A stretch of 64,000 nucleotides of DNA from a virus. The translations under genes and the position numbers were made by a program. The stretch lies in IMG/VR virus record IMGVR_UViG_3300025137_000020, positions 32,001 through 96,000 of that record, one strand, 5' to 3'. Every line of letters starts with the position of its first letter. The first letter of the stretch is position 1. Shown here one piece after another: positions 1,853 through 43,050 of this stretch. The notes beneath the pieces are model-generated. The model was not told the DNA's origin, did not search any database, and saw nothing but the letters and a program-made list of their open reading frames with translations.

Positions 1853-3941
1853 TTACTGTCATATTAAATACTGTTCTAGTTACTCCAGAGGTTAGTCCCG
1901 TAAGAACTTCTTCTTCAACAAACTTAGATTCTAACTCCTTTACCACTATTACGTTATTACTTGAAGATACAATAGTCGCTCGTCCTAACGTTGCATTTCC
2001 TGTTACGATTTCGCCTATTGTAAAATTTTGGTTGTCGGATGATGAAACGTTAAGAGTTTCGCCTCTTGAGCCAATTCTTATATTCCAGCCAGCTACAACT
2101 GGATTTACCGTGTCATTTACATTATCGGCAATCAACGTGCCATTTCTAAGTAATTGCCATTCATCACCACTGTATTGAATACTTACTGCAGCGTTTGGAC
2201 TATTACTTCCGCCAGACGGTGAATTCAAATCAAATTTTGGAAGGCCATTTACTTTACCATTTCTAATAAAATTACCGGATATAATCGTATCATTTACTGA
2301 ATCGATATCTATAACCAATGGGGTTGTAGGAGAATTAGCCGGGCTATCAATTTCTCCTAATTGCTCTGCTGGAATAGTGATTTGGTCAGTAACTAAATAA
2401 TCTACACCACCGTCAATAATTGTAATATTAGAAACCGAGCCAGTCTTGTCTAAATCAATGTCTAATGATAGACCACCACCGGTTCCGCCATCAACAGTTA
2501 TGCTACGAGTAAAGGTTGGATTATAATCTGCTATTGTATCAGCATTAGCAGAATCACCTGCAGTTACAGTAAATGTATTAACACCTCCTTGAGCCACACC
2601 CGTACCAGAAATACTAGCAGCGGTTATAACTCCACTATCGATTGTAGTAACTGTAACTGTTGCATCGTTAGCTGGACTTGCGCCACCTAAAGATGTACCA
2701 AGAACTGTAATTGTTTCGTTTTCAGCGAATGCAGTTCCGCCGTCACTTATAGCACTAATGCTATATACAGTGCCATCTTTTTGTATAGATAAATCAGCGT
2801 CTGTTCCACTAATACCACCATCCAAATCTGTAATATCATATACTATAGCTTCAGTAGAATCAATAGTATCTACATTTATCGTCAAACTTGTATTATGATA
2901 AGGCGAATCAGATATTGTTAATGTATCTGCTACAGTAAATTTGAGTCCCGCGAGTGAAGTTGCCACCGCAGTAGTTATTCCTGTTCTGCCGTCTATAGTA
3001 ACATCAAATGCAGCTCCTGTGCCAGTGCCGCCTGTCGCAGATAAAGATGAAATAGCAATATTAGTATTATCCGCAGCAATTCTATCTAAGTCAGTAGTAC
3101 CACTATTAATAGAAACACTATTAATATCGTTTAACGCAGCAATACCCGATAAAACTAAACTGTTAACTGCTAAATTCGCCGAGTGCTGGTTATCTGCATC
3201 AAACAATGAAGTAAACACGTCGATTGCACCCGATGGAGAATCTTGTGATACTTGTACAGTGCTTAATGTATTTGCTAACCCAACCGCCACCGATGTAAAA
3301 TCAGCAATTTCGGTTTCAACCTTTTTGATAATTGATACCCTTGAAGTATCGGGTGCGAATCTAATTCTTACAGTAAAGTCTAATGTATAAACTATGGTTC
3401 TTCTTGTTGCAACATCTGATTCATAATCATCTGTAAATGTAACGCTGTTTAGAATAAACGGGACGTCGGTAAGAGAGCCAGGTCCTTCAATGCCTTTAAT
3501 ACTTACTGTGTATTCTGGTGAAAATGTTGGAAGAATCTGCTCTACAATTTGTAACGCGTCCTCTTGGTTTCTAGCCATAATATTCAATTGCATACCCAGA
3601 GTATAAGGAACACTCTGATACATAGAATTTCTACTATTAGGCGAGTTAGAAATAGTATGTAGAGTCTTATTCAGTCTATTCAATTTTGTACTAGAGTCGT
3701 AATCAATAGAAGTAATTTCAAAAGACATTCTTGGCAACTTAATTGCTACCCGCTGCTGCTCTAGGTTCTCTTTCATTCTATCCAAGAATTTATTTCGAGG
3801 CCCATAAGATATAGGAACCCTTTGGATATTAGATATAGTATTTCCACTGTGTCGACCGACAACAATGTTATTAAAGATTGTACCAAATACTGATACAATT
3901 CTTTTTATTGTAGCGTGATAAAAATGTACTCCGTTAAGCAT
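1845..3941 (-). CDS. gp15: Tail sheath stabiliser/tail terminator gp15 with long C-terminal beta-rich extension
   Basis: N-terminal HFYHATIKRIVSVFGTIFNNI, VPISYGPRNKF, LPRMSFEITSIDYD, QIVEQILPTFSPEY match T4-like gp15; start placed at ATG 3941; about 450 extra C-terminal residues. Confidence 0.88.
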   Translation of the reverse strand: MLNGVHFYHATIKRIVSVFGTIFNNIVVGRHSGNTISNIQRVPISYGPRNKFLDRMKENLEQQRVAIKLPRMSFEITSIDYDSSTKLNRLNKTLHTISNSPNSRNSMYQSVPYTLGMQLNIMARNQEDALQIVEQILPTFSPEYTVSIKGIEGPGSLTDVPFILNSVTFTDDYESDVATRRTIVYTLDFTVRIRFAPDTSRVSIIKKVETEIADFTSVAVGLANTLSTVQVSQDSPSGAIDVFTSLFDADNQHSANLAVNSLVLSGIAALNDINSVSINSGTTDLDRIAADNTNIAISSLSATGGTGTGAAFDVTIDGRTGITTAVATSLAGLKFTVADTLTISDSPYHNTSLTINVDTIDSTEAIVYDITDLDGGISGTDADLSIQKDGTVYSISAISDGGTAFAENETITVLGTSLGGASPANDATVTVTTIDSGVITAASISGTGVAQGGVNTFTVTAGDSANADTIADYNPTFTRSITVDGGTGGGLSLDIDLDKTGSVSNITIIDGGVDYLVTDQITIPAEQLGEIDSPANSPTTPLVIDIDSVNDTIISGNFIRNGKVNGLPKFDLNSPSGGSNSPNAAVSIQYSGDEWQLLRNGTLIADNVNDTVNPVVAGWNIRIGSRGETLNVSSSDNQNFTIGEIVTGNATLGRATIVSSSNNVIVVKELESKFVEEEVLTGLTSGVTRTVFNMTVNE

Positions 3942-5701: not shown

Positions 5702-7897
5702 TTAACTATTTGGGCCACTTGATTTATACACCTGCCCCGCATCTATTAATTGAGATTCATCTATTCGAGGTGGCCAACTAGTAGTACCGTATGTTTCATA
5801 CGGTGCTCGTGATGTACTTCTAAGATCACCTTGAGGTTCTACGACAGAAGTAATATGAATCCCGCGTCTCATTCCGTAGTTCCCCTCTTTTACCCATGAA
5901 ATCTCGCCATTCTGTTTTCCTTTCCACCCAATTAAATAGTATCCGTGACCTCCATGGCCACCGCCGCCACCTCTGTTACCTCCACCCCCGGTACTACCGC
6001 TTTGCCCGCCATAAGTTCTAATAGTTGGATGACCATATAAAGTATTATATATTACGACTACACTTCCGCCGGCCCCACCTCCGCCAGATGCGCTACCACC
6101 GTCGCCAGACCGCGTTCCATTAAGAGAGTTACCATTTTGGCCTCCTCCAACGCCTTCCTCATAGCAACTCGAAGAGCCTGAGCCGGGTGTATAAGCATTA
6201 CTGTTATCACTCGACCCTCTACCTTGTCCCCGCGCGTATAAAAGGGTCGCATCTGATTGATAATATGCTGAGTTAGTACCACCACTAGCACCACTGCTTT
6301 GATCCGATCGCTTACCCATAGGAATTGGTGCTAAATAGTAACTATTGGATACGTCGCCAGCTGATTCGACTGCAACCCCGCCCGTCTTTAAGTTTGGCGC
6401 GTCTGCAAATCTTATAATAGGCGCTACTAAGACAATACAACCGGCTCCAGTAGCATTTTTGCCACCCGGCACCCCGTCATATGTAATGGTACTCCGCCGC
6501 CAGCTACTGCCGCTGGAAACCGATGTACTGACGATGCCACCCTTGCCGCCGGCACCGCTCACTCCACCATAAAGAACTGGAAAATCATCGTTGTTGGCGT
6601 AGGGATCGGCCGCTAAACCATATTTACCTTTCATAGTATACCCAAAAGATTTCATAAATGATACAGCAGTACCATCCGCGCTTCTGCCACTGACTCCGTT
6701 GGCCCCTGAGCTATTGTTTCCGCGGTAGCCTCCACCTGCGCCACTCGCGCTTTGTACTACGCTGCCTGAAACGTTAGCGCCTTCGTCTATAGTGCGCTTA
6801 TAGCTTAATGCAGTGCTCGTGCCACCGGTGGCGGTGAGGGATCTGCTATTAGCACCACCACCACCGCCGCCACCACCAGTGCTAAAAATCTGGCTATATG
6901 CTGCGGCCGACCCAAAATCTGAGGTGGTGTTCGCTCCTGTTCGCGTTCCTGTGGGGTTTGCATTTATTCTTACCCCAGCTCCGAATGTAATAGACTTAGT
7001 AGCAAATATAATAACACGACCAGGATACCCAGTAGGAACCAGTTCTGTGTTATCTCGTATGACTACATCAGTAAAATTTTTAGTGCCATTGATTTTAGCA
7101 TTTATAAATTTGCCAATCCCTGCACTTGAATAATAACTACAATTTTCATCTGTGGAGCCGCCGCTGCGCGGTCTTCCTTCAAAATAAATGTACTCGAAAA
7201 AGTTATCTGCGAATAACTTGCGGACGGCGGAGGCGGGGTCACTCGTGTAAAACGGGTCTTCATACCAAATTCCACGGTAAGAGTATTCACTAGCGACGGA
7301 CGCCGATACCCTATCTGCATAAGGATACAGATTCTGACCTGACAGATACATTCTAGTAAATGGTGTTACACCAAATGGTACTTTAGATTCTCTTGAGAGC
7401 ATCCGTCGGTAGAAGGAGGTTCCACCTGAGGTGTATAGTGTTACTAATTCCCACCCGCCCCAACGCCTTCCAGCGCTTAATACACCATTATTATAAGTGG
7501 TAGATTCATTCCAAAGAAAAAAGTAGTCCAAGCCCAAAGGCGTATTATCATAAATTGATACAGCAACCCAAGCTTTTTTACCAACAAAAAAACCAGCGCT
7601 TTCAATTTCTGAACCGTCCAAACCTGCGTGGTAAGTTGCCGTTGACATTGTACTACGGTATCCTGGTGAAGCTGTATCAGTAGCAGTTATGGTAGTTTCA
7701 ACCCATTTAACACCATCTTGAGATGCGGGGTCGAAGTGTGGAAAGCTACTTGCGATGATCCCACTTTTAGGTTGGCCAGGATTGTATGTTTGTTTTACTT
7801 CATACTCGATTGGCCCATAAACGTGAGAGCCATCAGATCCGTCACCCCAGCGATACGGCTCGGGTGTTGTTATTTCAACTTGACCGTGTCTACTCAT
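5702..7897 (-). CDS. Glycine-rich virion/fibre-associated protein
   Basis: 731 aa, poly-Gly tracts (GGGGGGGG, GGGGAGGSVVVIY) in the C-terminal half; co-oriented inside the structural operon after a fibre gene. Confidence 0.6.
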   Translation of the reverse strand: MSRHGQVEITTPEPYRWGDGSDGSHVYGPIEYEVKQTYNPGQPKSGIIASSFPHFDPASQDGVKWVETTITATDTASPGYRSTMSTATYHAGLDGSEIESAGFFVGKKAWVAVSIYDNTPLGLDYFFLWNESTTYNNGVLSAGRRWGGWELVTLYTSGGTSFYRRMLSRESKVPFGVTPFTRMYLSGQNLYPYADRVSASVASEYSYRGIWYEDPFYTSDPASAVRKLFADNFFEYIYFEGRPRSGGSTDENCSYYSSAGIGKFINAKINGTKNFTDVVIRDNTELVPTGYPGRVIIFATKSITFGAGVRINANPTGTRTGANTTSDFGSAAAYSQIFSTGGGGGGGGANSRSLTATGGTSTALSYKRTIDEGANVSGSVVQSASGAGGGYRGNNSSGANGVSGRSADGTAVSFMKSFGYTMKGKYGLAADPYANNDDFPVLYGGVSGAGGKGGIVSTSVSSGSSWRRSTITYDGVPGGKNATGAGCIVLVAPIIRFADAPNLKTGGVAVESAGDVSNSYYLAPIPMGKRSDQSSGASGGTNSAYYQSDATLLYARGQGRGSSDNSNAYTPGSGSSSCYEEGVGGGQNGNSLNGTRSGDGGSASGGGGAGGSVVVIYNTLYGHPTIRTYGGQSGSTGGGGNRGGGGGHGGHGYYLIGWKGKQNGEISWVKEGNYGMRRGIHITSVVEPQGDLRSTSRAPYETYGTTSWPPRIDESQLIDAGQVYKSSGPNS

Positions 7898-7903
7898 ATT
7901 TTA

Positions 7904-10900
7904 TTAGCTAGGTTGTAAATCGTATGTGATTGCTGCGTAGAAGATACCTGATACATATACACCAGATAGAATATCAACTCCGTCGGGTCCAGGTGTTAAT
8001 GTTGGATCACCGCCTGCAAAGTGCATATTGCTTGGAAAATCAATGTCGTAACTACCAGCGTTTTTGATGATCATTGTAAATGCTCCACCGGTGTCTCGAG
8101 TACTGTTCGCGGACAATGTCATAGTAGAATTACCACTTACATTAATAACATGAACATTAGAATCTCCTAGATATATTGTAAATGCACCATTAGCAGTAGT
8201 TGTCTTAATGTTATTTGTGACAGTACCTTGAAATTTTACATGATTCGAATCGTGGTGATAGCTAAACACTCTGTGCTCGGCACCACCAGAGCTATTACCA
8301 GTTTCCTCTGGTCTTGACGTACCGCTGATTTGAGTTGTGCTAGCAGATTTTCTAAAGAATGTTATTTCGTCCTCACTTCCAACAACTGAAGGGTTGTTGT
8401 CGCCGTTGTATAAGAAACCACCACCGTGAGTACCCGATTGGCCAACGTAAATTCTACCAGTTCCTTGGGAGGTACCCATAAGTCGAAGCTCTGCGACTTC
8501 GGTATCTGGTGCGACTATATCAATACCCTCGCCATTGGCGTAGTGACCACTAGGAGAAGCTGTACCAATACCAAGTCTCCGTCGTGACTGGTCGTATACC
8601 ATACCATTGGTATCAATTGTCAAATCTCCACTTGCTACAATTGGCTGGCTGAATGTAATATTACTAGAATTGAACTGCGCCACTGTAGAAGAACCACCTG
8701 GCTGTAGTTTAATATTTTTAGCCGCTGCAGCAGTTGCAGTAGTTCTAATTTCAAGACCTGAAGAGCTGGCTTTAATAGCATGAAGGGAACCACCACCAGA
8801 GCTTTCAAATCTAATATGGTCACCCACATCAGTAGTTCCAGTTTTTGTAGATTTTAAACTTAACACCGCATCTGGTGTGATGTCCATTGCGGTGGCATTG
8901 CCAGAAATGAATAGAGCATTTTCAAATATGTTCGATCCATTTCTGCTGATTTTATATCTATCTACTTTAGTTGCACTATTGGCTCTACGTGTTGTAATAG
9001 AGAAGATTCGATCGTCGGCAGTACCTACTTTAATAGTAGCTTGCATTACCCCGCTTCTATAAAAATCAAGAACCGAGGAATCGGCATTTACATTAAACCC
9101 ACCACATGCATTAGTTTTTCGCGAGAACATGAAAAATGGACTTCCGCTATTGTGATTAAACGAAAATCCTTGGTCTGTATTGTTTAAACCAGGTACGCCA
9201 GTGCTGTCAGTAAGTGCGCCAGTTGAATCAGTCTTAAACAAGATAAGCCTGGTTGTGGTCATATCAAGCGCGTAATCTGTATCAGCTGACGAGCCAGATT
9301 GGGTTTGCAAATCGTTATCGGCTAGATTTTGAGCCGTCCTTGCCATTAATCCTAACCTATTGTATGAAGTGTTAATATTGTTTCTAAAGGTAGTACCCGT
9401 TGTGTGCCTAACTACAAAGTGGTCGCCACTGCTGTTATCGCAGAGGTCTAAAACAAGACTACCGTAATCAGTGGCGTTGGTCGTCGCGGAGGAGTCTTTA
9501 CTGTTTTCAGCATATAATCTTGCGCCATCTGTACCATCTCCAGCAGCTTGCTTATCGATGGCTGGAAACTGTAAGTATTCTTTTCTATTCAGATAACTGC
9601 TACTATCACCGGAAGATGCGAAGGTCCCAGCCGTTCCGCGTATACGTACTGTCCCTTGTACATCCAATGCTTCAGCTGGTGTTGTAACACCTATACCAAT
9701 CGAATCCGATTCGATCGTGGGCACTTTGAACTTAACTAAAGATTCGACTTCAGTACTATTCCAATCCATAACCCTGGTACTATCAGAATATAGGGCGAGG
9801 TCTTCGGAGTTATTTCCATGTGTTCTAAAATAATGGCTTTTACCAGTACCAAAAGTGCCTTCTATCTTTAACGCAATATTGTTCTCGAAATCTCCTTTTA
9901 AATGAAGTTGGGCATCTGGATTAGTAAGGCCTATGCCAACCTTACCATCTGTATCGATAGCTAATCTTTCTTTGCTATCAGTTTGATCATAAATTCTAAA
10001 TACTCCAGCATCAGTAATAAGTCTAAAGTGACCTTCAGAGTTCTGTAAGTCGTAGCCAGCTTGGCCAGCGCCTGTTGTCTTAACCAAGACTTTAGCACTC
10101 CCCACAGTTGTGTCAGTTACATCTAGAAGTGCAGTAGGAGCGGTGACTCCTCCAATACCAACTTTTCCATCAGTATCAACTACGAACTTTGTTTGTGCTG
10201 GACGAGCCGTGTCAATGCCATCTGCGGCATAACCAAGCATAAAGGTAGATTGAAGATAGCCGCTTCCCGCAAACCATTCACGATCATTGGCACTAACTGC
10301 GCTATTTAAGCTATCTTTAATATAAATCCCTGCGGCTCTACCTTCGAATCCTATTAGGTTTATGACTGCAGTATCCAACGGCGCAGCGCCGTCATCGGCT
10401 ACATCTACCACTAATCCGCCATGACTAGTCGTCCTAATCGTTCCGCCGGCGACGATGGAACCTACATCAGAAATATTACCAGATGCATCAACATCAAAAT
10501 TACCATTAGCGGCCTGTATAGTTCCGTCTGCATATATGTTACCACTAATATGAAGATTGCTACCGACATAAAGCTTCTTGGTCACGGCTAATCCGCCAGA
10601 TAAAGTATTTGCTCCACCGTCTGCTGAGCTTGTTGCGTCTGTTGTTAAAGTATTAGTAAATATACCATTCATTGATATACCACCAACCTCATCCAAATCT
10701 ACTTGGTTAAACTCTACAGTAGCTGAACTTCCCGTTGATGATATTCCAGTAACATTCAAATTACCAGTGATATTAACATTACCTTTTAATTTAGCGTCTC
10801 CATCGACCTGAAATTTGTATGGTCCGTAAGTCCGGCCATCTAAATCTACAGTAGCATCAGCCGAAGTTGCGTTTATTCCTACAAAACTATTGTCGGAGTC

Positions 10901-31591: not shown

Positions 31592-33451
31592 TTAATCTCG
31601 TGAGACTGTAGTATAACTAGCTAAACCAGAAGAACCAGCAATACTGATATTATCAATATCCCCTTGTATATTAGTTCTTTCCACGTCTATTTGTAAAATT
31701 TTCTTTCTTTGTGAAATGATATCATCGGCTGCCGGTCTAACTTCTACTCGTAATGATTCGTTAACATCATTCTGTAAATCTGATAAATCGACTAAACCTG
31801 TATTAGGATAAAGATAACCGACATTTGCATTAATAATAACAACTCGACCAGTGGAGTCTATTTGGTACGCATAGATTTGTCGTTTTTCGCTATCACCTGG
31901 AATGTGTTTATCCGCAAGAATTGCTTCCTTTCCTCCAATTATAATTGAAGACGTTGCAATCATTGATTCAGACTGGTCTAGCTTTCCATCGATAGTAAAT
32001 CCAAAATCCACTTGAGCGGTATCTAAAGAACTCGCTGTAATGTTTACTAATTTATATGCGTATACTCTAGCGATATTGTTCAAGATAGCCGGATTAGCTG
32101 CGTCGATTGAAGCTAATAAATTGGAGTGTCGGTATACACCGTCAAAATTGTTTAGTTTCGATTGATTGTAATTAATTAGTGTTTGCTTAATAGTAGAAAT
32201 TAATCCGCCTAAAGATGTACTAGTACCACTTGGGTCGTATTTAAAGAAAACTTCAAAATATATATATGTGTATTCGGGGTCAACAATAACTGGAGTTATA
32301 CCAACCATCTTTTTAGACTCAAGCAATGAAAGAATTTCGGCTTTCTGTAAAGTAGTTAAATACGGAGCGGCGGTCGGTTTAGCTGAAATATAAACTTTAC
32401 CGAATTGTGGAATAGGTTCTGTTTCGCCGCCCCATGCCGCAACGTTGTCAAGCCCTGAAAAGCTTTTCATAATGATTGACTTATAGTCATCAGATGTTAC
32501 AGCTCTTTCCTGTGAGATAAAGGATAATGGGGCGTTATATTTAATTGAATTAATATCTTCTACCTGATTACCTCCAGCTGCTTTTGCTGTAGTAGTAACT
32601 ATCGCCGAGCCTGATTCATATTCTAATCCACTTTGACCATCGGTAAAATTGAATAGAGAAGCTCCATTTGTTAAAGGCCCTTCGGAAACCAAATATGTAA
32701 GTCTAACTAGACCCGAGGCTGCAGGTCTTGCACCAAAAAGATTATTACCAAAGCGGATTTCAAAATTGCCATCTGCATTTTCATCTACAAAATAAATTTT
32801 TGAAGTACCATCTACGTTTGGAAATTCGGTAAATTTATTATAGGCTTGCTGAGTACCATTGACCGCTGCAATTGTTGGAAAGACTTCTACTTTTAATGTT
32901 GAGGTATCTGCATTCTGCGCGTTAATAACAAATCTTTGGTCATAACTATTATCGATTGTATAATTCTCTACTCGAGTAGTACCCTGTTTAATAATTAGAT
33001 TATTAAACGTAAAGGTTTCTTGAGATTCGTCTTTTTGAGCAACTGTAATCTCGGCTGTTTCAAATGAATAAGTTGTAGAATCAATACTAGTAGTAAATTG
33101 AGTACCTTGAGGAAGGGTGAGTGTGCTATTACTAGCTCCTTGTTTCGAACTCAATACTAATTTTATTGATGCTGATGGCGCAGTTACAGACTTAGGAGTA
33201 TATCCAAGGAGCTTCGCGCGGGAAACAACATTACCACGAACTTGAGCGGAATCAAGAAAAGATTCGTTCATTGCCATGTGAGCATTAACCGCATTATAAT
33301 GTGTATTATATGCAAGAATGTCCATTATGTGATCAAGGCCAGAGCCTGTAAAATCATAGTCCGTAAATGGGCCCCCGGTGCGTTTAAAATAATCAATAAG
33401 ATTAGCTTTAATCTTATCAAAATCTAGTTCTGTTGTATTAAATTGTGACAT
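31592..33451 (-). CDS. gp6: Baseplate wedge subunit gp6
   Basis: LDFDKIKANL, DYDFTGSGL, LAYNTHYNA, ESFLDSAQVR, QERAVTSDDY, WGGE..P.FGKVYIS. Confidence 0.95.
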   Translation of the reverse strand: MSQFNTTELDFDKIKANLIDYFKRTGGPFTDYDFTGSGLDHIMDILAYNTHYNAVNAHMAMNESFLDSAQVRGNVVSRAKLLGYTPKSVTAPSASIKLVLSSKQGASNSTLTLPQGTQFTTSIDSTTYSFETAEITVAQKDESQETFTFNNLIIKQGTTRVENYTIDNSYDQRFVINAQNADTSTLKVEVFPTIAAVNGTQQAYNKFTEFPNVDGTSKIYFVDENADGNFEIRFGNNLFGARPAASGLVRLTYLVSEGPLTNGASLFNFTDGQSGLEYESGSAIVTTTAKAAGGNQVEDINSIKYNAPLSFISQERAVTSDDYKSIIMKSFSGLDNVAAWGGETEPIPQFGKVYISAKPTAAPYLTTLQKAEILSLLESKKMVGITPVIVDPEYTYIYFEVFFKYDPSGTSTSLGGLISTIKQTLINYNQSKLNNFDGVYRHSNLLASIDAANPAILNNIARVYAYKLVNITASSLDTAQVDFGFTIDGKLDQSESMIATSSIIIGGKEAILADKHIPGDSEKRQIYAYQIDSTGRVVIINANVGYLYPNTGLVDLSDLQNDVNESLRVEVRPAADDIISQRKKILQIDVERTNIQGDIDNISIAGSSGLASYTTVSRD

Positions 33452-33452
33452 A

Positions 33453-33887
33453 TTATCTTAATCTTTCTAAGTAAAAATCTATGGTTTGATCGCCCGGTGT
33501 ACCAATAATATTAAAATGTACACTAACGGCCATGGCATTCAATTCTGCGTTGTCCTGTATGTTAACTTTTATCTTACCTACTCTAGGCTCTAGGCTCGAG
33601 ATCATATCTTTAATTTTATTTCTAATAGACTCGAATGTATAGACATCTACATTATCAAACAATTGTTCAAATATACCACTGCCTATATTTGGGTTAAACA
33701 GTCTTTCACCTCTTTGGGTTAGTAGCAAATTTTTAACAGACTGTTTAACTGCATCAATATCAGTAATAGGCCGGATATCATTATATGCGGGATGTGGCTT
33801 AAAAGATAAATCTAAATCGGCAAAAACCCGATCTTGCTTGACCGAGATATTCGACGCGCCATTGTTATTATAATCCGAATAAGCCAT
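33453..33887 (-). CDS. gp25: Baseplate wedge subunit gp25
   Basis: DLDLSFKPHP, AVKQSVKNLLLTQRGERLFNPNIGS, LEPRV, LERLR. Confidence 0.94.
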   Translation of the reverse strand: MAYSDYNNNGASNISVKQDRVFADLDLSFKPHPAYNDIRPITDIDAVKQSVKNLLLTQRGERLFNPNIGSGIFEQLFDNVDVYTFESIRNKIKDMISSLEPRVGKIKVNIQDNAELNAMAVSVHFNIIGTPGDQTIDFYLERLR

Positions 33888-33893
33888 ATCAAC

Positions 33894-33901
33894 TATTTAT
33901 A
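33894..33901 (-). promoter_or_regulatory. T4-type late promoter upstream of gp25
   Basis: Exact TATAAATA 6 nt before the gp25 ATG. Confidence 0.85.
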
Positions 33902-33907
33902 AGACTT

Positions 33908-35515
33908 TTAGTAGTCTTCGCCCAAGAAATCGCGTAGCTCTGGACTAATTCTTATGGGCTGTGTGGCTCCTTTAGGCACTTCGTGCACAAACCCAAAGGA
34001 AGCCAAATCTTTATGAGCTTGATAAGTGTCTGCGAATTGTGTGACATATCTTTTACCATCCTCGCTCGTCGAATACATGAAGTGCGGAATAAATGAAGAT
34101 TCGGAATGCTTAGATACTTGACTAGTATCTTCTTCAGTTGCATTTCCCGAAAGTACGGATTCCCACGGCTCAAGTTTTCCACCGACTGAATTTGGTATAA
34201 AGTTTCCTGCGGATGGAAAGTCTTCTAATTCTTTGACTGCGGTATTTGTTGTCCAAGAAATCATTGTTAAAAAGGCCAAGCGACTTTCTTTACTAATTAT
34301 TACTTTAGCGTTAAATAAAGTATTTACATAGTCGTGTATCATATTGGCATAATCATTATCTGCTTCTACATGAGTACTATTTCTTATGCTCGTGATAGTA
34401 TAAAAATGTGGAATAAAATTTGCTCGATAATCATTATATTTAAATTTAAATGCTGGTGGTATTCTTATCTTAGCTTCATCCGTACCACACAATTGCCTTA
34501 AGCCATATCCATACTCTGGATTATATTCTTTAATGCCGAAACCCACTTCATTATATACCTGTCGCTGGAGTTGGGGTTTGTATTGCTCATCAAATTTTCC
34601 ATCATACCACCGGTTATTACCCCGAACGTCAGGTCGTCTACCGAGAGTAAGAAGCACCTTGCTCCCATAGTTCGATATCGCAGACTCCATATTTGCATAT
34701 GCTGTTAGCTTTGACTTATATAAAACCCAACGGTCTAATGCAGGTGGAACTCGTATGTCTGGGTTTAATAAATAATAATCAGCCACTTGGCCCTCTGGGT
34801 TTCTTATTTTCCACGCAGACGGTAGGTTGTGAAACATAGTGGATGCCTGAGTTTGGTCGCCTTGTTGAGTCATTCCGCGGGTCGTCTCTTCCATCTTCTC
34901 GCGAAGTGATTTCATAAATTCTTTCTCGGCTTCAACTATTACGGCCTTCGCTGCTTTAGCTTGAGTTACAGAAAATCCTGACTGCGATATTATTTGGTCT
35001 ACCTTCGGATCTGCCGGCATCTCCGCAGCAGTAGGTTGCACTGGCTCTGGGTCTTCTTGCTCTGGATTACCATCAATATTTTCTACTACATCAATAGTAG
35101 TAGGTGTTGGTTCTAATTTACCATCTGCTCCAACCTTAGCTTCTACTTTAGGAACGTCTTTACATATATCAAAGTCCAATAACGCAAGTGGGTTTTTTAC
35201 TATATCCAGTACATCTTCAATATTATCGACGAGGTCACCCCATGCGTTTTGTATTTTCTGTAAGTCTTCTAAAAGCTCAGGTGCACCGGCCTTAGCTTTT
35301 GCGATTAGTTTATTAATTTCATCTTGAAAATTAGGAATTTCTGGCAACTTCGGTATACTTAGATTCATCGCATCTAGTTGCTCTTGGGCAGCTGCCTTTA
35401 TGTCGGCCAATGCGTCTTTGCCAAGAGTGTCTAATTGAGCAAGCTTATCAGCCAATGCTTTTTTCTTTTCTTCTAAGCTCGCTAATAATTTATTCTTTCC
35501 ACAATCTATTGCCAT
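33908..35515 (-). CDS. Hypothetical protein between PAAR and gp25 (probably virion-associated)
   Basis: Start placed at ATG 35515 (MAIDCGKNK), 4 nt after the PAAR stop; helical N-terminus, acidic Pro-rich linker, unassigned globular C-terminus. Confidence 0.6.
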   Translation of the reverse strand: MAIDCGKNKLLASLEEKKKALADKLAQLDTLGKDALADIKAAAQEQLDAMNLSIPKLPEIPNFQDEINKLIAKAKAGAPELLEDLQKIQNAWGDLVDNIEDVLDIVKNPLALLDFDICKDVPKVEAKVGADGKLEPTPTTIDVVENIDGNPEQEDPEPVQPTAAEMPADPKVDQIISQSGFSVTQAKAAKAVIVEAEKEFMKSLREKMEETTRGMTQQGDQTQASTMFHNLPSAWKIRNPEGQVADYYLLNPDIRVPPALDRWVLYKSKLTAYANMESAISNYGSKVLLTLGRRPDVRGNNRWYDGKFDEQYKPQLQRQVYNEVGFGIKEYNPEYGYGLRQLCGTDEAKIRIPPAFKFKYNDYRANFIPHFYTITSIRNSTHVEADNDYANMIHDYVNTLFNAKVIISKESRLAFLTMISWTTNTAVKELEDFPSAGNFIPNSVGGKLEPWESVLSGNATEEDTSQVSKHSESSFIPHFMYSTSEDGKRYVTQFADTYQAHKDLASFGFVHEVPKGATQPIRISPELRDFLGEDY

Positions 35516-35519
35516 AATC

Positions 35520-35810
35520 TTAACCTCCTGCAAATACGTTTGATGAACCAGACGCGACTGAAGTACATCCACTAATACCATCACCAACTCTTCCGCATCC
35601 TAGTCCATTTACTTTTACTGTGCTTGAACCTGCAGCGATCGGTGCAGAGTGCGATGGGCAAGGAGAACCAGGAAGTAAGTGCCCTGTGTTATTATCGCCT
35701 TGGCGAGACACAGCAATTCCATTAGCGAAAACATTTCCACTTCCGGCTGCTCTCACCATTCCACTACAATGAGCCACATCTGCGTCTCCTATTCTTGTTA
35801 CTGCTGGCAT
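35520..35810 (-). CDS. gp5.4: PAAR spike-tip protein (gp5.4-like)
   Basis: MPAVTRIGD...HC, GSGNVFANG, VSRQGD..TGH, GSSTVKVNG..CGRVGD, GSSNVFAGG. Confidence 0.95.
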   Translation of the reverse strand: MPAVTRIGDADVAHCSGMVRAAGSGNVFANGIAVSRQGDNNTGHLLPGSPCPSHSAPIAAGSSTVKVNGLGCGRVGDGISGCTSVASGSSNVFAGG

Positions 35811-35815
35811 ATCTC

Positions 35816-35823
35816 TATTTATA
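35816..35823 (-). promoter_or_regulatory. T4-type late promoter upstream of PAAR
   Basis: Exact TATAAATA 5 nt before the PAAR ATG. Confidence 0.85.
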
Positions 35824-35825
35824 CC

Positions 35826-37409
35826 CTAAGTGGCGGTTTCCATATAAGTCTTTAACCACGTTAAAGCTGGTCTTTCTCCCGTACCATCACGATTAATTAA
35901 TCCAGTCTGATGGCCCTGGTCGTATCTCCAATTCTCTGTGTTAATATATCCCCAAATCGTTACCCGTTCTACATTAGGGTGATTCCATATCGCTGGAAAA
36001 ATAACTTGATATCTATCGAGTTGCTTTTGATCTATATCGATACTATCGCTGTTTGTACCTGAGATATCAAGCTCTGTAATGTGGATAGGTAATCCAGTTT
36101 GACTATGTACATCGTCAATGGCTGCAGTGATTTGAGCTGCGGTCAAATCATTAATATTAAAATAATGAGATTGCATACCAACTCCGTCAATTAAATTTGG
36201 ATTATGATTTTTAATTGCATTGACTGCAGCACAATTTTCATCACGAACTGTTTGATTACTCATCATACCAAAATCGTTTATCCAAATTTTTGCATTTGGA
36301 AAATAATTTCTTACTGTCTCGAAAATATAAATCGCCCAATCATAACCACTCGTACCAGCTCCACCAAATTGATTTATGATTCGAGTAGTACCAGCGTCTT
36401 GGTGACCTGTAGCGATTTCATTAAGCGCTGCGATACCATAGATATCATCTCCATATCGTGTAGATATTGCACTACACCAAGTTTCAAAGGCCGACTTACT
36501 TTCAGCAACACTTAAACCTTCCCACCAATCGGGTGTACCTTGATCAGCTCCCCAAATTAATGTATGCCATAACATTTTAATCCCATTTCTCTTACAATGA
36601 GCATGTAATATATCAGCTCCACTAAAATCGAATGTACCACGAACCTTTTCTACTGGTTGCCATTTACAAAGATTGCCAGCGGCCGCACTATTCCATAAGT
36701 CGGCATAATTTGCAGCATTTTGCTCAGTAACAAAAGGTTGAGTGGATTGTATCTCACTCATCTGAGCAGTATTAATATTTCCAAGCAACTTACTCTTTTG
36801 ATATGCTAATGCACCTATATTATCTGCAACTTGTACACGTTGTGCAGTAGCTCTACCTATAAGTTGAGCAAAAATATTTTGGTTTAAAACAGTATGAGTA
36901 AATGAATAAGTTAATCCATCAGTCGCACCACTGTCATATTTTATTGCAAATTGTACTTGATACGTAACATCAACTTCACTGGAGCCCTCTTCGGCCTTAA
37001 ATAATTCAACGTTGTCGGGCAAAGCAGTTATATTGTTTCCTATAGTGGGGGTTTCAATTAAATCACTTGAACCAGCCGAAACGTGTTTTACTACGTCGTC
37101 TGTGAATGCCCCATCGTATTGTCCGACTAATCTTATTTTATATTCTCCACTGGTATCTACATCATGTGGATATGTTACAGCTGTTCCGCCTAGCTCAAGA
37201 GTGATTGTTATAGTATCATTCGTGCTTATGTTTTGACTGATGTCAATAAAAGGCGAACCCGTCATGTGGGTCAATCCTGTTATTTCGGTGATATTACCAT
37301 CGGGGCTAGAGTCTAAGTTTTTATTAACAGTAATTAGCTTTGTAAAATTAAATGCTTTGCCACGAGCTTTATCTTGGGAATTAATATCTGTGATTTCAAT
37401 ATCTGACAT
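35826..37409 (-). CDS. Fusion protein: N-terminal beta-rich domain plus C-terminal glycoside hydrolase family 10 (endo-xylanase-type) domain
   Basis: Residues ~200-523 carry GH10 motifs in order: GNLCKW, WHTLIWG, AALNE (E331, acid/base), KIWINDF, IDGVGMQSH, LPIHITELDI (E446, nucleophile), HPNVERVTIWG, RPALTWL. Confidence 0.88.
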   Translation of the reverse strand: MSDIEITDINSQDKARGKAFNFTKLITVNKNLDSSPDGNITEITGLTHMTGSPFIDISQNISTNDTITITLELGGTAVTYPHDVDTSGEYKIRLVGQYDGAFTDDVVKHVSAGSSDLIETPTIGNNITALPDNVELFKAEEGSSEVDVTYQVQFAIKYDSGATDGLTYSFTHTVLNQNIFAQLIGRATAQRVQVADNIGALAYQKSKLLGNINTAQMSEIQSTQPFVTEQNAANYADLWNSAAAGNLCKWQPVEKVRGTFDFSGADILHAHCKRNGIKMLWHTLIWGADQGTPDWWEGLSVAESKSAFETWCSAISTRYGDDIYGIAALNEIATGHQDAGTTRIINQFGGAGTSGYDWAIYIFETVRNYFPNAKIWINDFGMMSNQTVRDENCAAVNAIKNHNPNLIDGVGMQSHYFNINDLTAAQITAAIDDVHSQTGLPIHITELDISGTNSDSIDIDQKQLDRYQVIFPAIWNHPNVERVTIWGYINTENWRYDQGHQTGLINRDGTGERPALTWLKTYMETAT

Positions 37410-37606
37410 TACATAGTTTCCCGTTCTAGTAATTCTTGTAACTTACCTTCCCACTGTTCCATTTCCTCATGCTGTTCATCAGTATGAGGTGGGTCAGGCA
37501 TCTCTGGTACAAATGCAATTACGTTCTCAAATGACTCTGGTATTTCTTCAAAATTCTGATATACCTTAGTTCTACCACCTATTAAAATTTTAAAATAGTG
37601 TGCCAT
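37409..37606 (-). CDS. Small conserved protein of the gp5/PAAR region
   Basis: 65 aa, IPESFENVIAFVP..P.PPHTDEQHEE motif; start and stop overlap both neighbours (translational coupling). Confidence 0.75.
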   Translation of the reverse strand: MAHYFKILIGGRTKVYQNFEEIPESFENVIAFVPEMPDPPHTDEQHEEMEQWEGKLQELLERETM

Positions 37607-38958
37607 TAGTTTAGATTAATCCGCGAACCGTCGATATCTGTAATTCCTGCTGCGTGTAAGTCCATCGCATCTGGTGTATCTACAGTAATCTTTCCGGTCG
37701 CGTCAATATCTAAAGTCGATGTCACATCAATCTTATATGTAGTATCAATAACATCTGTTCTTGCACCGGTATTTTGTTTAAGCGTACCAATAACTGACCG
37801 CGATTCATTACCCATAATTACACTCTTTAAATTTTTACCAAATGTGATATTCCCGCTTCTCTTACATTCAAACTCAAACGCTCTTGGAGAATCATTTGCT
37901 GATGGAGATTGGTGACTAGCGTGAATAGTTCTTTTTTCGAATTCGCCAATACTAGAAATTAAATTTCCTTTTACATTCATCATTTGGTTTTTATCTACTT
38001 CAAGGAAATCAGACATCACGATCTTTTCATGCTTATTGCCACGAACTAAAAGGTGATAATCTTTTTCTACTTCCATATAATAATCGCCTTTAACCAATGT
38101 TCTTGCATCACCGTTAATAGTTACATTGCAATTTCCTTTAATAGAAACATTATTATTTTCAAGTACAACCTTATATTCATTTCCATTTACAACGATAGTT
38201 TTATCTCCACTAGCATCAATTTCACTATAAGTACCTGAAGTGTGTTGTACTAAAATTCTTTCGTTATTGGGAGTTTCATCAAATTCTACAATATGACCAC
38301 AGCCGTATTCTTTAGTATGGCAATTAGGATACGTAGGATTTGTAATATCTTCTTGGCTTTCTTGTAACCATCGTTTTCTTTCAAAGAATTTGGCGTCTTT
38401 CTGCAAAGTATTCTTAAGTGTGTCTGTGCTAGGCGGAACCGCCATTGGTATATTTACTTTCTTGCCGTCTTTATCGAGCGCGCGAGAATCATTCCGTAAA
38501 CTACTTTTATCAATATAAGACTTAGACTCCCTATATTCACTGGTAGCACCTTTAGGTTGGTCATTCGCGTTTGCAGTTCTGGGATTTTCTCCAAATGGGT
38601 CCGCGAACCCCTTTTCGTAATCAGAACCCATGGGTGTTCTAGATGGTAATGTTCCTAATACTAATGGGTCTTGGCATGCCTCGCCATCTCTAAAGAATCC
38701 AACTACCCAGCTACCTTGAACAACACCAGTAGCAGCTTCACCAATACCAGAGCATGACCCAGAAGTAATCGGTGTCATCACATTCGCCCACGGCAAATCA
38801 ATAGTACGAATACCGTCTTCTTTATTTTTATTTGAGGTGTGATAACCAAAGCATCTTACTCTCACTCGTCCTTGTTCATACGGGTCGTGAATATCTTCTA
38901 CTACACCAATAAACCAATGAAACCCCGTTGATAGGAAATTATTATTTTTATAATCCAT
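37606..38958 (-). CDS. gp5: Baseplate hub/central spike gp5 (OB-fold plus beta-helix, no lysozyme domain)
   Basis: WFIGVVED..DP..QGRVRVRCFGYH, LPWA, WVVGFFRDGE..QDPLVLG, YPNCH...GHIVEFDETP..ERI, VxG beta-helix repeats, ends GSRINLN. Confidence 0.93.
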   Translation of the reverse strand: MDYKNNNFLSTGFHWFIGVVEDIHDPYEQGRVRVRCFGYHTSNKNKEDGIRTIDLPWANVMTPITSGSCSGIGEAATGVVQGSWVVGFFRDGEACQDPLVLGTLPSRTPMGSDYEKGFADPFGENPRTANANDQPKGATSEYRESKSYIDKSSLRNDSRALDKDGKKVNIPMAVPPSTDTLKNTLQKDAKFFERKRWLQESQEDITNPTYPNCHTKEYGCGHIVEFDETPNNERILVQHTSGTYSEIDASGDKTIVVNGNEYKVVLENNNVSIKGNCNVTINGDARTLVKGDYYMEVEKDYHLLVRGNKHEKIVMSDFLEVDKNQMMNVKGNLISSIGEFEKRTIHASHQSPSANDSPRAFEFECKRSGNITFGKNLKSVIMGNESRSVIGTLKQNTGARTDVIDTTYKIDVTSTLDIDATGKITVDTPDAMDLHAAGITDIDGSRINLN

Positions 38959-38961
38959 AAT

Positions 38962-40332
38962 TTAAATTTCGGAAAAAACTGAATCCTTTTTGCATTCTAC
39001 GTCACATGTATATTTATCTTCTTGATCGTTAAATTCAAATTTGTGTAGAACTGACGTTATTAAATAATTACCAGAAAGCAATTTGTCGAGATGCCCGGTA
39101 TCAGCATCTTCGCTGTTATACCCGCGGTATGCTATAGCTTCCATAGATTTAGGAAATAACAATTTGATTTTTCTACCAGCCTGTAAATTAAAATCGCCAT
39201 TCAATGTAATATTTTGGGTCATTGTATTTAATTTAGAATTAAACGCGTTTATTGTAGCAGCCCCGTGTCGCATATCATTTCCATAGTTCTTATTTGCGCC
39301 ATACGCTAATTCATTGATAGAAAAATATTCTGTATGGGCATCAGGCAAAGAATTTAAAGGTCTACTGTTATTTCTTCCAATCTTAAAAGACTGCGATAAT
39401 AGTGTATGGCCTCTGTCTGATACAGCAGTCTTTCTAACATTCGAACCGCTATCACCACCATAATCAAATTCTTTCTGTTTAAATGTTTTATTTGACAAAT
39501 CTAGAAAATTATTTTTCGAGGCATAGCCGCCACGTACTGATTGCGCAACCTTTGACATACCTAAATTAGAAGAGAAATCTAGTATTCTAGTCTGTCTTTC
39601 TACATAATCATCTTCGGTATGAGGTGCTGCAGTGTATCCTTTTAAATAGACATATGCATTGTAATTTTTATTTAGTTCCGAATCCATTAAATACGACAGT
39701 GAATATAGTCGTACCATGTTATCAATGCTCTGGAAGAAAAAGAATGGTGCTCCGTTTTCATCGTGAGCAGATTTTCTAAAATACTCAATTGCGGATAATG
39801 GTTCTTGCATATTAATTATACCTTTATGCCTAGAAACATCAGTTCCTTTAATAGACATACTATCATAAAATAAATCATTTTGTACAATTCTTCTAATCTG
39901 CTCACTAGCACTACTATTATATGCCCGAGAGATTTTCATAAATTTAGAATTATACGCATGATGCGAAATTCCCTTTAAAACGTATGCTTGCTGATTAGCA
40001 TTAGTATGGGATTTTGCAAAGTCAGAGTATTCTGTAATCACAAATTCCATAGTTCTATTAACCGGCGTGTCACTTACAAACGGCCATTTCTCAAACTCAA
40101 TACTTAAAGTCTCTTGTCCAATAAGAGCAAAAGACTCAAAGAAATTAACTGAATCCGCAATAGTAACTTCGATTATAATTGAAGGTAAGTATATACTTTC
40201 ACGAATTACAATATTAGAAATCAATTCGTCAATTACACGGAAGTCTCCTGTGTGATTATATAATTTAGCACTTACTAAACTGAAATGCGAAGGGTCTAAG
40301 CTTTTTCCACTGCTCGATAATGTTGTTGCCAT
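38962..40332 (-). CDS. Baseplate hub protein (gp27-like)
   Basis: IRESIY..., IGQETL, FFFFQS, LNGDFNLQAGRKIKL, DKLLSGNYLITSVLHKF; lies between gp53 and gp5. Confidence 0.72.
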   Translation of the reverse strand: MATTLSSSGKSLDPSHFSLVSAKLYNHTGDFRVIDELISNIVIRESIYLPSIIIEVTIADSVNFFESFALIGQETLSIEFEKWPFVSDTPVNRTMEFVITEYSDFAKSHTNANQQAYVLKGISHHAYNSKFMKISRAYNSSASEQIRRIVQNDLFYDSMSIKGTDVSRHKGIINMQEPLSAIEYFRKSAHDENGAPFFFFQSIDNMVRLYSLSYLMDSELNKNYNAYVYLKGYTAAPHTEDDYVERQTRILDFSSNLGMSKVAQSVRGGYASKNNFLDLSNKTFKQKEFDYGGDSGSNVRKTAVSDRGHTLLSQSFKIGRNNSRPLNSLPDAHTEYFSINELAYGANKNYGNDMRHGAATINAFNSKLNTMTQNITLNGDFNLQAGRKIKLLFPKSMEAIAYRGYNSEDADTGHLDKLLSGNYLITSVLHKFEFNDQEDKYTCDVECKKDSVFSEI

Positions 40333-40342
40333 AATTTATTTC

Positions 40343-41842
40343 CTAATAACCTCCACCGCCACCAGAAGGAGCACCGCCACCAGAAGGAGCACCGCCACCA
40401 CCAGCAGAACCACCTGATGAAAAACCTCCACCACCACCAGTAGAAGCAGTAGATATGATTCCATTAGTACTTCCTACCCGAGTAAGACCTTGATTGAGTT
40501 TCCGTTTAAATTCTTTTACAAAATCTTCAATTAATTCAGGCCGGACAATTTTAATTCGACTTTTTTCATCATTCACACGTATTGCTGATTGATAATTACT
40601 AACATAATTCATTGGTTCTTGACCTTCTACTGCAAGTTCATTTCCATATGTTAAGTATTTGTATTCGCCATCAGCGTCAAGATATTGTTTTCGCTGAATA
40701 CCGTTTAGCATATCATGCGCATTAATTTTATCGTCAAGATTTGCTGGGTCACCGCCTTGTCTGTAATAATATGCAGGGGCATTTCTTGCTGAAACAAATG
40801 AATGTTCTTTACCATCGGCTTGGCGTCTATACGGCTGAAGACCATACCACTTCATGTTTCCGTTAACGTACCAAGGAGTAAAATAATTTCTAAAAACGTT
40901 TAATGCAGCTTGAGTTCTTCCAATAGAAACATCTCTCGTCTGGTCTTGAAATTCTCTTAGAGGTAAATTATTATAGGCTAGTATATTACCGTCTACAGTA
41001 GTTTGGTTAGCTTGGCCAATAATTTGTGTTTCGAACCACTCAAATAAATGTTCACACCATTCAACTCTTTCTGCCGTCATAAGATTCTTATAAAACGGAC
41101 CCGGTTCCATGTGATTCGCACCGTCGCCTTCCCTATAACCATTCTCCGAATTTTCTCCTATAATTGGCCAATCGTTAAACGTAAATGACATCGTACCTTG
41201 ATGTGCCTCGCTAGCCCATGTTCCTAACGCGTTTTGCTGAAAATTTAAAACGGGGGTTTGTAATAAAGTGTTCTTTAACTCTAATTTAGCATCACCCATG
41301 AACAAATTTCTATTAGAAAAATCTTTTAGGTATAATTGATTTAGCCCTTGGTCCCATTTTACAATTGAAGCCGTGGAAAAATTTCTATAAACTTTTAAAT
41401 CTTCGTAAGATAAATCTAAACCCGCTAAGCTATTTGATATATGCTCGTATTCTTTAGTTTCGGGGTCATTGTCTTCTTCTAATTGTCCCGTCGCTACAAC
41501 AATCTTATCTCTAATAACTGGGTTTAACGTAAATACGCCAATATTATCATACTCATTTGTAAATTCTGTTTCAATAGAAGAAGAGGCTTGAGGCCAATCA
41601 TCTAAACCAGCTTTTAAACTTTCATTTATAATAAAGAACGTCCAATAATAATCTGGTGTACCATATAGCCTTTGCGATAAATTGTCTGGTCTTTCACCAT
41701 CTCCGACCGTTATCAATCGATACGATGCAATATCAGAAGCGAGAATGTCATTAACGTCTACGTGGCGGAATAAATCAACAATCGCTTTAGGCTGATTGCC
41801 TATTTGTAATTGTGTAAATGGAAATTGGCTGAAAAAACTCAT
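40343..41842 (-). CDS. gp53: Baseplate wedge subunit gp53 (enlarged)
   Basis: FFSQFP, GERPDNLSQRLYGTPDYYWTFFIIN...DWP, VSNYQ...NDEKSRIKIVRP. Confidence 0.88.
   Translation of the reverse strand: MSFFSQFPFTQLQIGNQPKAIVDLFRHVDVNDILASDIASYRLITVGDGERPDNLSQRLYGTPDYYWTFFIINESLKAGLDDWPQASSSIETEFTNEYDNIGVFTLNPVIRDKIVVATGQLEEDNDPETKEYEHISNSLAGLDLSYEDLKVYRNFSTASIVKWDQGLNQLYLKDFSNRNLFMGDAKLELKNTLLQTPVLNFQQNALGTWASEAHQGTMSFTFNDWPIIGENSENGYREGDGANHMEPGPFYKNLMTAERVEWCEHLFEWFETQIIGQANQTTVDGNILAYNNLPLREFQDQTRDVSIGRTQAALNVFRNYFTPWYVNGNMKWYGLQPYRRQADGKEHSFVSARNAPAYYYRQGGDPANLDDKINAHDMLNGIQRKQYLDADGEYKYLTYGNELAVEGQEPMNYVSNYQSAIRVNDEKSRIKIVRPELIEDFVKEFKRKLNQGLTRVGSTNGIISTASTGGGGGFSSGGSAGGGGAPSGGGAPSGGGGGY
40353..40400. 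repeat. 18-bp tandem repeat encoding the Gly-rich gp53 tail (GGGAPS x2)
   Basis: accgccaccagaaggagc occurs twice in tandem, followed by a partial third copy. Confidence 0.8.
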
Positions 41843-43042: not shown

Positions 43043-43050
43043 TATTTATA
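43043..43050 (-). promoter_or_regulatory. T4-type late promoter for the gp48-gp53-gp5 operon
   Basis: Exact TATAAATA on the minus strand upstream of gp48. Confidence 0.85.

Follow-up and report, generated by a model that had tools for sequence, protein, structure and literature searches.

A putative gp5.1-family domain fused to a GH10 barrel in the spike locus of a marine T4-type virus, a candidate spike-mounted glycanase

Introduction

The only ORFans with late promoters in bacteriophage T4 are 5.1, 5.3 and 5.4 (Mattenberger et al., PMC12407873), and in phage RB43 this 5.1-5.4 locus is replaced by a gene of ~690 codons that may encode the spike tip (PMC12407873). A 2026 paper presents an AlphaFold3 model in which T4 gp5.1 lies on a lateral face of gp5.4, the PAAR protein of the spike tip (PMC13611949). 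The same paper claims that particles lacking gp5.4 also lack gp5.1; this claim was not found in the preprint that it cites and was not used here. In this study we describe a related locus in a stretch of viral DNA of 64,000 nucleotides (nt), hereafter the window, which covers positions 32,001 to 96,000 of the IMG/VR record IMGVR_UViG_3300025137_000020 (105 kb, estimated completeness 59%). Between the gene for the central spike protein gp5 and the PAAR gene, the window encodes a 65-amino-acid (aa) protein, p65, and a 527-aa protein that joins an N-terminal domain, which we assign to the gp5.1 family, to a barrel of glycoside hydrolase family 10 (GH10). We found no description in the literature of a GH10 enzyme, or of any gp5.1 fusion, in a phage spike locus.

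Our proposal, to which we give an even chance, is that virions carry the 527-aa protein as a glycanase held close to the spike tip, where it would cut a xylan-like polymer of the host or its surroundings during adsorption. The evidence for its two domains, for its place in a probably late structural module and for the exchange of the module between phages is given below, followed by the points that weigh against this reading and the alternatives to it.

GH10 barrel and the −2 subsite

The C-terminal part of the fusion, with boundaries at residues 208-527, matched the Pfam family Glyco_hydro_10 (PF00331) over residues 223-519 at 4.8e-49 (167.7 bits against a cut-off of 22.1; profile positions 19-308 of 311), so that the full GH10 barrel proposed in the initial annotation of this DNA was recovered by the Pfam scan. 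In the AlphaFold2 (AF2) model of the fusion the mean predicted local distance difference test score (pLDDT) was 79, with values of mostly 80-98 in the barrel. The barrel fold was matched by Foldseek to Xanthomonas XynB (4pmy_A; E 8.3e-23, TMt 0.88, 32% identity), and the top matches listed were all GH10 entries or proteins on a GH10 scaffold. Both catalytic glutamates that had been predicted, E331 in an NE motif and E446 in a TE motif, are read in the translation and are invariant in relatives; across a 17-sequence alignment the invariant residues were N330-E331, T445-E446, N246, K249, W250, H282, Q413, H415, W486 and W494. By comparison with the Cex/Xyn10A structures, K249, H282, Q413, H415, W486 and W494 are assigned to the −1 subsite. 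The barrel is under purifying selection (omega ~0.09). Judged from these alignments and the modelled fold, the fusion protein is a genuine GH10 member whose catalytic machinery is complete, and it is predicted to be a retaining hydrolase of beta-1,4-xylosidic bonds.

The −2 subsite is changed. The glutamate of the ENxxKW motif, which is typical of the family without defining it, is absent, and the window protein reads GNLCKW with G245 in its place, just as the initial annotation had it. When the motif was scored in all fetched loci, the Glu was lacking in 18 of 18 phage-clade loci (at least 42% identity). These 18 read GN[LV]CKW or, in a sister clade, NNP[FM]KW or GNVSKW, and nearly all cellular GH10 loci read ENxxKW. 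Because the Glu is missing throughout the phage clade and kept by nearly all cellular loci, its loss is read here as a fixed character of the clade and not as a lesion. Two cysteines, C248 (GNxCKW) and C272 (HxxCK), occur in the core phage clade and not in the aligned cellular relative P0034; a disulfide between them is conceivable and would suit an enzyme that works outside the cell.

The closest cellular GH10s (31-38% identity) belong mainly to Bacteroidota and other members of the FCB group, and several of them carry sorting domains of the type IX secretion system (T9SS). No T9SS sorting domain was found in the phage GH10 protein. The first 30 residues of the fusion hold no hydrophobic signal, in agreement with the earlier statement that a signal peptide is lacking.

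N-terminal domain and its relatives beside PAAR

A phmmer search with residues 1-205 against 1.84 billion representative proteins returned ten proteins only, most of them GH10 fusions or fragments and three of them stand-alone proteins of 150-163 aa. Modelled by itself (pLDDT 74), the N-terminal domain (N-domain) consists of two beta-sandwiches followed by a helix. In profile comparisons with hhalign, the fusions matched the marine stand-alone proteins (97.9%, E 4e-13), the stand-alone forms matched a gp5.1 profile built from five phages (87.7%, E 3.4e-6), and the N-domain family as a whole matched this gp5.1 profile with 93.5% probability (E 2.3e-7). The N-domain profile was not significantly similar to the lone T4 gp5.1 sequence (E 0.08). 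With hmmscan, one of the 14 members of the N-domain alignment hit phrog_1168 at 6e-6; T4 gp5.1 itself scores 5.5e-67 on this family. Furthermore, Foldseek searches of BFVD recovered P-HM1 E3SMR3 (1.5e-5), Henu6 (6.8e-5), Aeromonas 65.2 (1.8e-4) and gp5.1 of Acj133 (9.2e-4), and the matched protein of Acj133 (Acinetobacter phage 133) is the product of the gene between 5 and 5.4. Gene 5.1 stands immediately before the PAAR gene in T4, Acj133, AbTZA1, AS-sw and Vibrio phage D486. We conclude, mainly from the profile comparisons and the position of the gene, that residues 1-178 represent a divergent gp5.1-family (PHROG 1168) domain.

The N-domain is under purifying selection (omega 0.16-0.24). Fold searches of the PDB returned only generic immunoglobulin (Ig)-like sandwiches, from which no specific family of carbohydrate-binding module (CBM) could be named or excluded, and the N-domain and p65 profiles gave only chance-level matches to PDB sequences. 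Since nothing more specific than an Ig-like sandwich was recovered, the domain is not an identifiable bacterial CBM, and its relatives mark it as a phage-specific domain tied to the PAAR locus. The initial annotation had named an ordinary bacterial CBM as an outcome contrary to its reading; the gp5.1 family was matched instead. A profile search for longer proteins with other cargo on the N-domain gave GH10 fusions only, which is weak evidence given the limits of the word index. For a complex of PAAR, p65 and the N-domain (residues 1-180), predicted from one alignment per protein, the score was 0.10 where the mark is 0.32, which is not evidence either way.

Stand-alone relatives of the N-domain occupy the same slot in other marine phages, as the initial annotation had suspected of a small conserved gene beside PAAR. 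In two IMG/VR loci (L085 and L086) the order is gp5 (325-327 aa), a p65-like protein (71 aa), a stand-alone protein of 163 aa, PAAR, gp25 and gp6, and in the cultured Prochlorococcus phages P-HM1, P-HM2 and MED4-213 the same trio lies upstream of gp25-gp6-gp7. In P-HM2 it consists of PHM2_080 (73 aa), PHM2_081 (169 aa) and the PAAR protein PHM2_082 (T4-GC 503/504/505). The stand-alone protein of L085 is 42% identical to PHM2_081, and p65 of the window is 36% identical to PHM2_080. Two gp5.1-family proteins beside PAAR carry toxin labels, 'putative RTX toxin' on PHM2_081 (L087:4929-5438) and 'toxin' on phrog_23903, which look like misnomers. A relation of p65 to T4 gp5.3 was also considered and rejected (hhalign E 0.47).

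Spike locus and probable late expression

The fusion gene lies in a minus-strand block with the order gp48-like tube cap, gp53-like protein, 456-aa hub/tail protein, gp5, p65, 527-aa protein, PAAR, a protein of ~535 aa, gp25 and gp6, of which the last two (31592..33887) form the end of the module. All open reading frames (ORFs) from gp5 to PAAR were found on the minus strand, at the stated coordinates and in the stated order. TAATG stop/start overlaps occur at both the gp5/p65 and the p65/GH10 junctions, in keeping with the translational coupling claimed for the first three genes. The gene for the fusion and the PAAR gene are 15 nt apart, and their spacer contains TATAAATA, a T4-type late-promoter-like motif. 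In the Pfam scan gp5 matched Gp5_OB and Gp5_trimer_C only and no lysozyme family, which bears out the earlier remark that its lysozyme domain is missing.

The gp48-like gene has a further copy of TATAAATA upstream of it, within the divergent intergenic region, and the gap that holds this copy is the only sizeable one upstream of the gp48-gp53-gp27like-gp5-p65-GH10 block. No convincing terminator was found within the baseplate/spike block. PAAR and gp25 each have a copy only 6 nt ahead of their ATG; these two copies may serve as late promoters inside the block, and the mRNAs started there would have almost no leader. Over the whole window the motif was found 9 times against ~10 expected and is not above chance, so that only the position of the 43043 copy is suggestive. 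A late operon can reasonably be inferred for the spike block, because of this copy at 43043-43050, the tight packing of the genes and T4 biology. The initial annotation had likewise called the locus a late operon; the motif and the packing would fit this call, and the motif count stays at chance. Among the public runs listed, no RNA datasets carrying the locus were found.

In P-HM2 infecting Prochlorococcus, PHM2_081 and the PAAR protein PHM2_082 belong to the Late (D) class (PMC5082946), and the auxiliary metabolic genes (AMGs) of this phage are all of the middle class (PMC5082946). The fusion gene appears to belong with the late genes of the structural module and not with metabolic genes, because of its fusion to a gp5.1-family domain, its coupling to gp5, the late timing of its P-HM2 homologue against the middle timing of AMGs, and the lack of a signal peptide. 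The earlier description of a virion-mounted enzyme, not a metabolic gene, is thus upheld by fusion, coupling and homologue timing as far as a structural-locus gene is concerned; a location in the virion would follow by inference.

Distribution of the phage clade and exchange of the cassette

The phage-only GH10 clade comprises ~29 protein clusters (P0001-P0029), whose sources are without exception marine or seawater datasets, and the stretch that holds the fusion is itself present in seawater and viral-fraction metagenomes of several independent studies. The gene order is kept, with local variations, in the related loci L002-L010. In L002 an extra ORF of 542 aa (7661-9289, phrog_9158) is found between GH10 and PAAR, and in L006 (3902-4792) and L007 (2460-3467) the same place is taken by an ORF of 296-335 aa with a tail-fibre-like N-terminus, MANxKISELxxLTGANL..DLLPIVDSS. 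The GH10 protein of some relatives is extended at its C-terminus by Ig-like or LamG domains. From these gene orders, variable cargo seems to be accommodated in the slot upstream of PAAR. Contigs that match PAAR in four seawater/virome runs continue upstream of its start into several unlike sequences, which fits a variable slot in natural populations, as expected of host-interaction modules. Contig joints that led from the PAAR start straight to p65 had sides of 27-34 letters at 85% likeness and were not used.

Extended GH10 variants (P0006, P0015, L007:595-2451 and L012:1094-2896) end in DYDYI(V/I)LEQV or LILEQV, a terminal peptide that is absent from the window protein and that might be a docking motif. 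In the sister clade, the GH10 gene of L019 (NNPMKW, with a different N-terminus) is followed by a gene (1660-3705) for a 681-aa right-handed beta-helix protein (PF13229, 3.5e-12); the right-handed beta-helix is the usual fold of tailspike depolymerases. In the sister-clade loci L014 and L015, a single weak tail-fibre match is the sole hint of phage identity.

Synonymous divergence (dS) from the two relatives compared is mosaic. Against L002, dS was 0.03-0.09 in the backbone, 0.83 in p65, 0.89 in the N-domain, 0.41 in PAAR and 0.18 in the barrel; against L003 the values were 1.5-1.9 for the backbone, 0.69 for p65, 2.4 for the N-domain, 0.76 for PAAR and 0.77 for the barrel. Amino acid identities of N-domain and barrel were 74% and 98% with L002, and 48% and 89% with L003, the N-domain thus diverging far more quickly than the barrel. 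Given this mosaic, we interpret the p65/gp5.1-GH10/PAAR cassette, and even its two halves, as recombining independently of the backbone, with all parts under purifying selection.

Feature coordinates and neighbouring genes

The coordinates of the features are collected in Table 1.

Table 1. Features of the spike block and its surroundings, in positions of the window.
Feature	Coordinates	Strand	Basis
TATAAATA, T4-type late-promoter-like motif, divergent intergenic region upstream of gp48-like gene	43043..43050	-	motif search
Hub/tail protein, 456 aa, gp27-like position, directly upstream of gp5	38962..40332	-	phrog_350 'tail protein' 3.1e-44
gp5 central spike, 450 aa; OB domain and C-terminal beta-helix	37606..38958	-	Gp5_OB 1.1e-27, Gp5_trimer_C; phrog_430 2e-80
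p65, conserved 65-aa protein	37409..37606	-	phrog_24555; homologue of PHM2_080
527-aa fusion protein (putative gp5.1-family domain and GH10)	35826-37409	-	ORF and Pfam
Fusion residues 1-178, putative gp5.1-family domain, two beta-sandwiches	36876..37409	-	hhalign, phrog_1168, Foldseek BFVD, slot of stand-alone homologues
Fusion residues 179-207, helix and low-confidence flexible linker	36789..36875	-	AF2 pLDDT <50 at 190-199 and 220-233
Fusion residues 208-527 and stop, GH10 (beta/alpha)8 barrel	35826..36788	-	PF00331 4.8e-49; Foldseek 4pmy_A
G245-N-L-C-K-W250, −2/−1 subsite motif, Gly for usual Glu	36660..36677	-	read from translation
E331 codon, acid/base Glu of NE motif	36417..36419	-	invariant in relatives' alignment
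E446 codon, nucleophile Glu of TE motif	36072..36074	-	invariant in relatives' alignment
TATAAATA, 6 nt before PAAR ATG	35816-35823	-	sequence
PAAR spike-tip protein (gp5.4 type), 96 aa, conserved His/Cys	35520..35810	-	PF05488 3.8e-09; phrog_281 3.9e-22; alignment
535-aa protein between PAAR and gp25	33908..35515	-	ORF; no Pfam or PHROG match
TATAAATA, 6 nt before gp25 ATG	33894-33901	-	sequence
gp25 baseplate wedge	33453-33887	-	PF04965 3.8e-14
gp6 baseplate wedge	31592-33451	-	phrog_219 8e-148

In tblastn, the alignment of gp5 with an Aeromonas phage gp5 falls into two pieces. For the 535-aa ORF the listed start is a TTG at 35587, which would give a 68-nt overlap with PAAR, and an ATG at 35515 stands behind AGGAGG; the ATG is the likelier start and the TTG is probably wrong. 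The 535-aa protein is present in the clade of the window, only 28% identical in L003 and L008, and missing from L085 and L086, where gp25 comes straight after PAAR. The gp53-like protein (40343-41842, minus strand; 499 aa) is far longer than T4 gp53 and has a glycine-rich end, GGGGAPSGGGAPSGGGGGY.

By gp6, the nearest cultured phages are the Methylophilales phage Melnitz, pelagiphages and cyanomyophages, at only 32-36% identity. Against cultured phages, megablast with the 8-kb region gave no match, and tblastn with the fusion gave only two weak GH10 matches in gut phages. The psbA gene was not found in the 105 kb, which at ~59% completeness leaves room for a cyanophage.

Proposed role and alternative explanations

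In the mechanism that we propose, the gp5.1-like domain would attach the enzyme to the central spike complex, by way of PAAR and/or the gp5 helix and perhaps aided by p65, after the protein had been made late along with the hub and spike proteins and without a secretion signal. The tethered GH10 barrel would thereby be at the contact point when the baseplate meets the cell, where its substrate would be a xylan-like polymer with beta-1,4 linkages, part of the host envelope or of the surrounding matrix, hydrolysed with −2 subsite recognition that is probably non-canonical. Cleavage of the polymer would let the spike reach the outer membrane, and the p65/gp5.1-GH10/PAAR cassette would be swapped between phage backbones like a host-range module.

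Several observations weigh against a glycanase mounted on the spike. The link to gp5.1 is transitive because its significance runs through the intermediate stand-alone proteins: the fusions by themselves matched the gp5.1 profile weakly (34%, E 4e-4), the BFVD fold matches are modest (TM 0.34-0.45), and those to PDB folds are at background (Foldseek TM ~0.33, best VIA Z 7.8). The N-domain is 48% identical to that of L003 where PAAR is 94% identical, which is odd for a conserved docking interface. None of the candidate hosts is known to have a surface polymer that a GH10 enzyme would cut, and penetration may be hindered if the piercing tip carries a protein of 60 kDa. Furthermore, no density was assigned to gp5.1 in the T4 cryo-electron microscopy maps (PMC13611949), and PHM2_080, the p65 homologue, is of the Mid (C) class, not late (PMC5082946).

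The timing and the lack of a signal peptide would fit equally well a soluble late enzyme outside the virion that is freed at lysis and degrades capsule, exopolysaccharide or gel, so freeing progeny or preventing re-adsorption to debris (receptor-destroying), with the gp5.1-like domain as a glycan-binding or oligomerisation module. The pair of Ig-like sandwiches resembles accessory or adhesin domains of glycosidases, and the domain evolves fast, as a ligand-binding module might. However, tight coupling to gp5 and an invariable gp5.1 slot before PAAR across the T4 superfamily are expected of assembly partners, and the cassette co-transfers with PAAR; we consider release at lysis rather improbable, while giving it real weight. 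A spike-borne enzyme might instead act inside the envelope, entering the periplasm with the tip and replacing the missing gp5 lysozyme on a cell-wall or periplasmic glycan. The absence of a lysozyme domain from gp5, the altered −2 subsite and the translocation of T4 and P2 spikes to the periplasm (PMC12407873) agree with such a role, yet related marine phages that have neither a gp5 lysozyme nor GH10 keep just a small gp5.1-like protein. This role is disfavoured because a xylose-type −1 subsite is intact, all of its GH10 residues being kept, including N330, which contacts the 2-OH. In GH10 enzymes this contact argues against a 2-acetamido sugar (GlcNAc or MurNAc) at −1, and no enzyme of clan GH-A is known to cleave peptidoglycan. 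A substitute for lysozyme is therefore unlikely.

That the protein is an AMG product, a phage xylanase that helps the infected host to exploit xylan from algae or plants, is suggested by the frequent annotation of GH families as viral AMGs and by the closest cellular GH10s, which are secreted xylanases of polysaccharide-degrading Bacteroidota. We find this very unlikely for a protein that has neither a secretion signal nor the T9SS sorting domain, which its cellular relatives have and it has lost, that is encoded inside the baseplate operon and fused to a structural-locus protein, and that belongs to a clade at least 60% different from every cellular GH10 and with its own −2 motif. The timing in P-HM2, where the gp5.1-like homologue is late and all AMGs are middle (PMC5082946), also speaks against it. 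Loss of the −2 Glu and the position among host-interaction genes could alternatively point to a GH10 turned into a non-catalytic, lectin-like receptor-binding module. Because such a binding-only module would be expected to lose its catalytic residues, the invariance of both catalytic Glu and of the whole −1 subsite over 42-98% identity, at omega ~0.09, makes this highly improbable.

A glycanase carried by the spike thus remains the reading that we prefer, and it can be extended, with distinctly more doubt, to the family as a whole. The gp5.1 family may tentatively be seen as a missed fourth part of the T4-type puncturing device, an asymmetric PAAR adaptor that a clade of abundant marine myophages would have made the carrier of a re-specialised GH10, with its −2 subsite rebuilt, at the site of puncture and with a bacterial surface glycan, not plant xylan, as substrate. 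If this extension is true, the fusion would be a phage counterpart of the adaptor-loaded effectors of type VI secretion systems (T6SS), and a contractile-tail spike would for the first time be seen to carry a polysaccharide hydrolase built as a TIM barrel. The natural enzyme fusion offers a first functional clue to the gp5.1 family, found conserved throughout the T4 superfamily, and suggests that gp5.1 has a structural role of the carrier type. With the fusion, the known virion-borne glycanases would gain an enzyme family and a mounting point that are both new, and the substrate of the phage GH10 clade might bring to light a surface or matrix polysaccharide that has gone unrecognised in an abundant marine bacterium. 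More generally, the case is a warning against classing viral glycoside hydrolases with metabolic genes.

Comparison with known systems

T4 gp5.1 (PHROG 1168) is a late ORFan between gene 5 and the PAAR gene 5.4 and shares with the N-domain the slot directly upstream of PAAR, and the stand-alone marine forms (150-169 aa) are of similar size. The window domain differs in being fused to an enzyme of 320 aa and in its identity of only ~20%, and T4 has no counterpart of the 65-aa gene that precedes the fusion. Closer in layout is the trio of P-HM1, P-HM2 and MED4-213, where a cassette of p65, gp5.1-like protein and PAAR also stands upstream of gp25-gp6, although PHM2_081 is a stand-alone protein without an enzyme domain and gp5 is not adjacent.

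The enzyme part resembles bacterial GH10 xylanases (Xanthomonas XynB 4PMY and the T9SS-secreted enzymes of Bacteroidota) in fold, in both catalytic Glu and in a complete −1 subsite. In contrast to these, the phage protein is at most 38% identical, has no signal peptide, CBM or T9SS domain, and belongs to a clade with Gly (Asn in the sister clade) for the Glu of ENxxKW. Like T4 gp5 lysozyme and the PAAR/gp5-hydrolase fusions, it is an enzyme genetically tied to the central spike complex; those are peptidoglycan hydrolases on gp5 or PAAR, whereas here a polysaccharide hydrolase family is found on a third protein of the spike locus. With tailspike and tail-fibre depolymerases it would share the proposed clearing of surface polysaccharide at adsorption. 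Such depolymerases, however, are typically trimeric right-handed beta-helices at the baseplate periphery, and the present enzyme is a TIM barrel in the hub/spike block. The AMG class is different again, consisting of host-metabolism genes of early or middle timing outside structural operons, while the fusion gene lies inside the baseplate block and is coupled to gp5.

The initial annotation had compared the layout with T6SS VgrG-PAAR-cargo modules. The likeness holds for the order of spike, small protein, cargo and PAAR and for the modular exchange of the cassette, as an analogy. It does not extend to the parts themselves, as p65 has no Pfam match, only phrog_24555, and so falls in none of the known T6SS adaptor families (DUF4123, DUF1795, DUF2169), and GH10 is the only kind of cargo found on the window N-domain.

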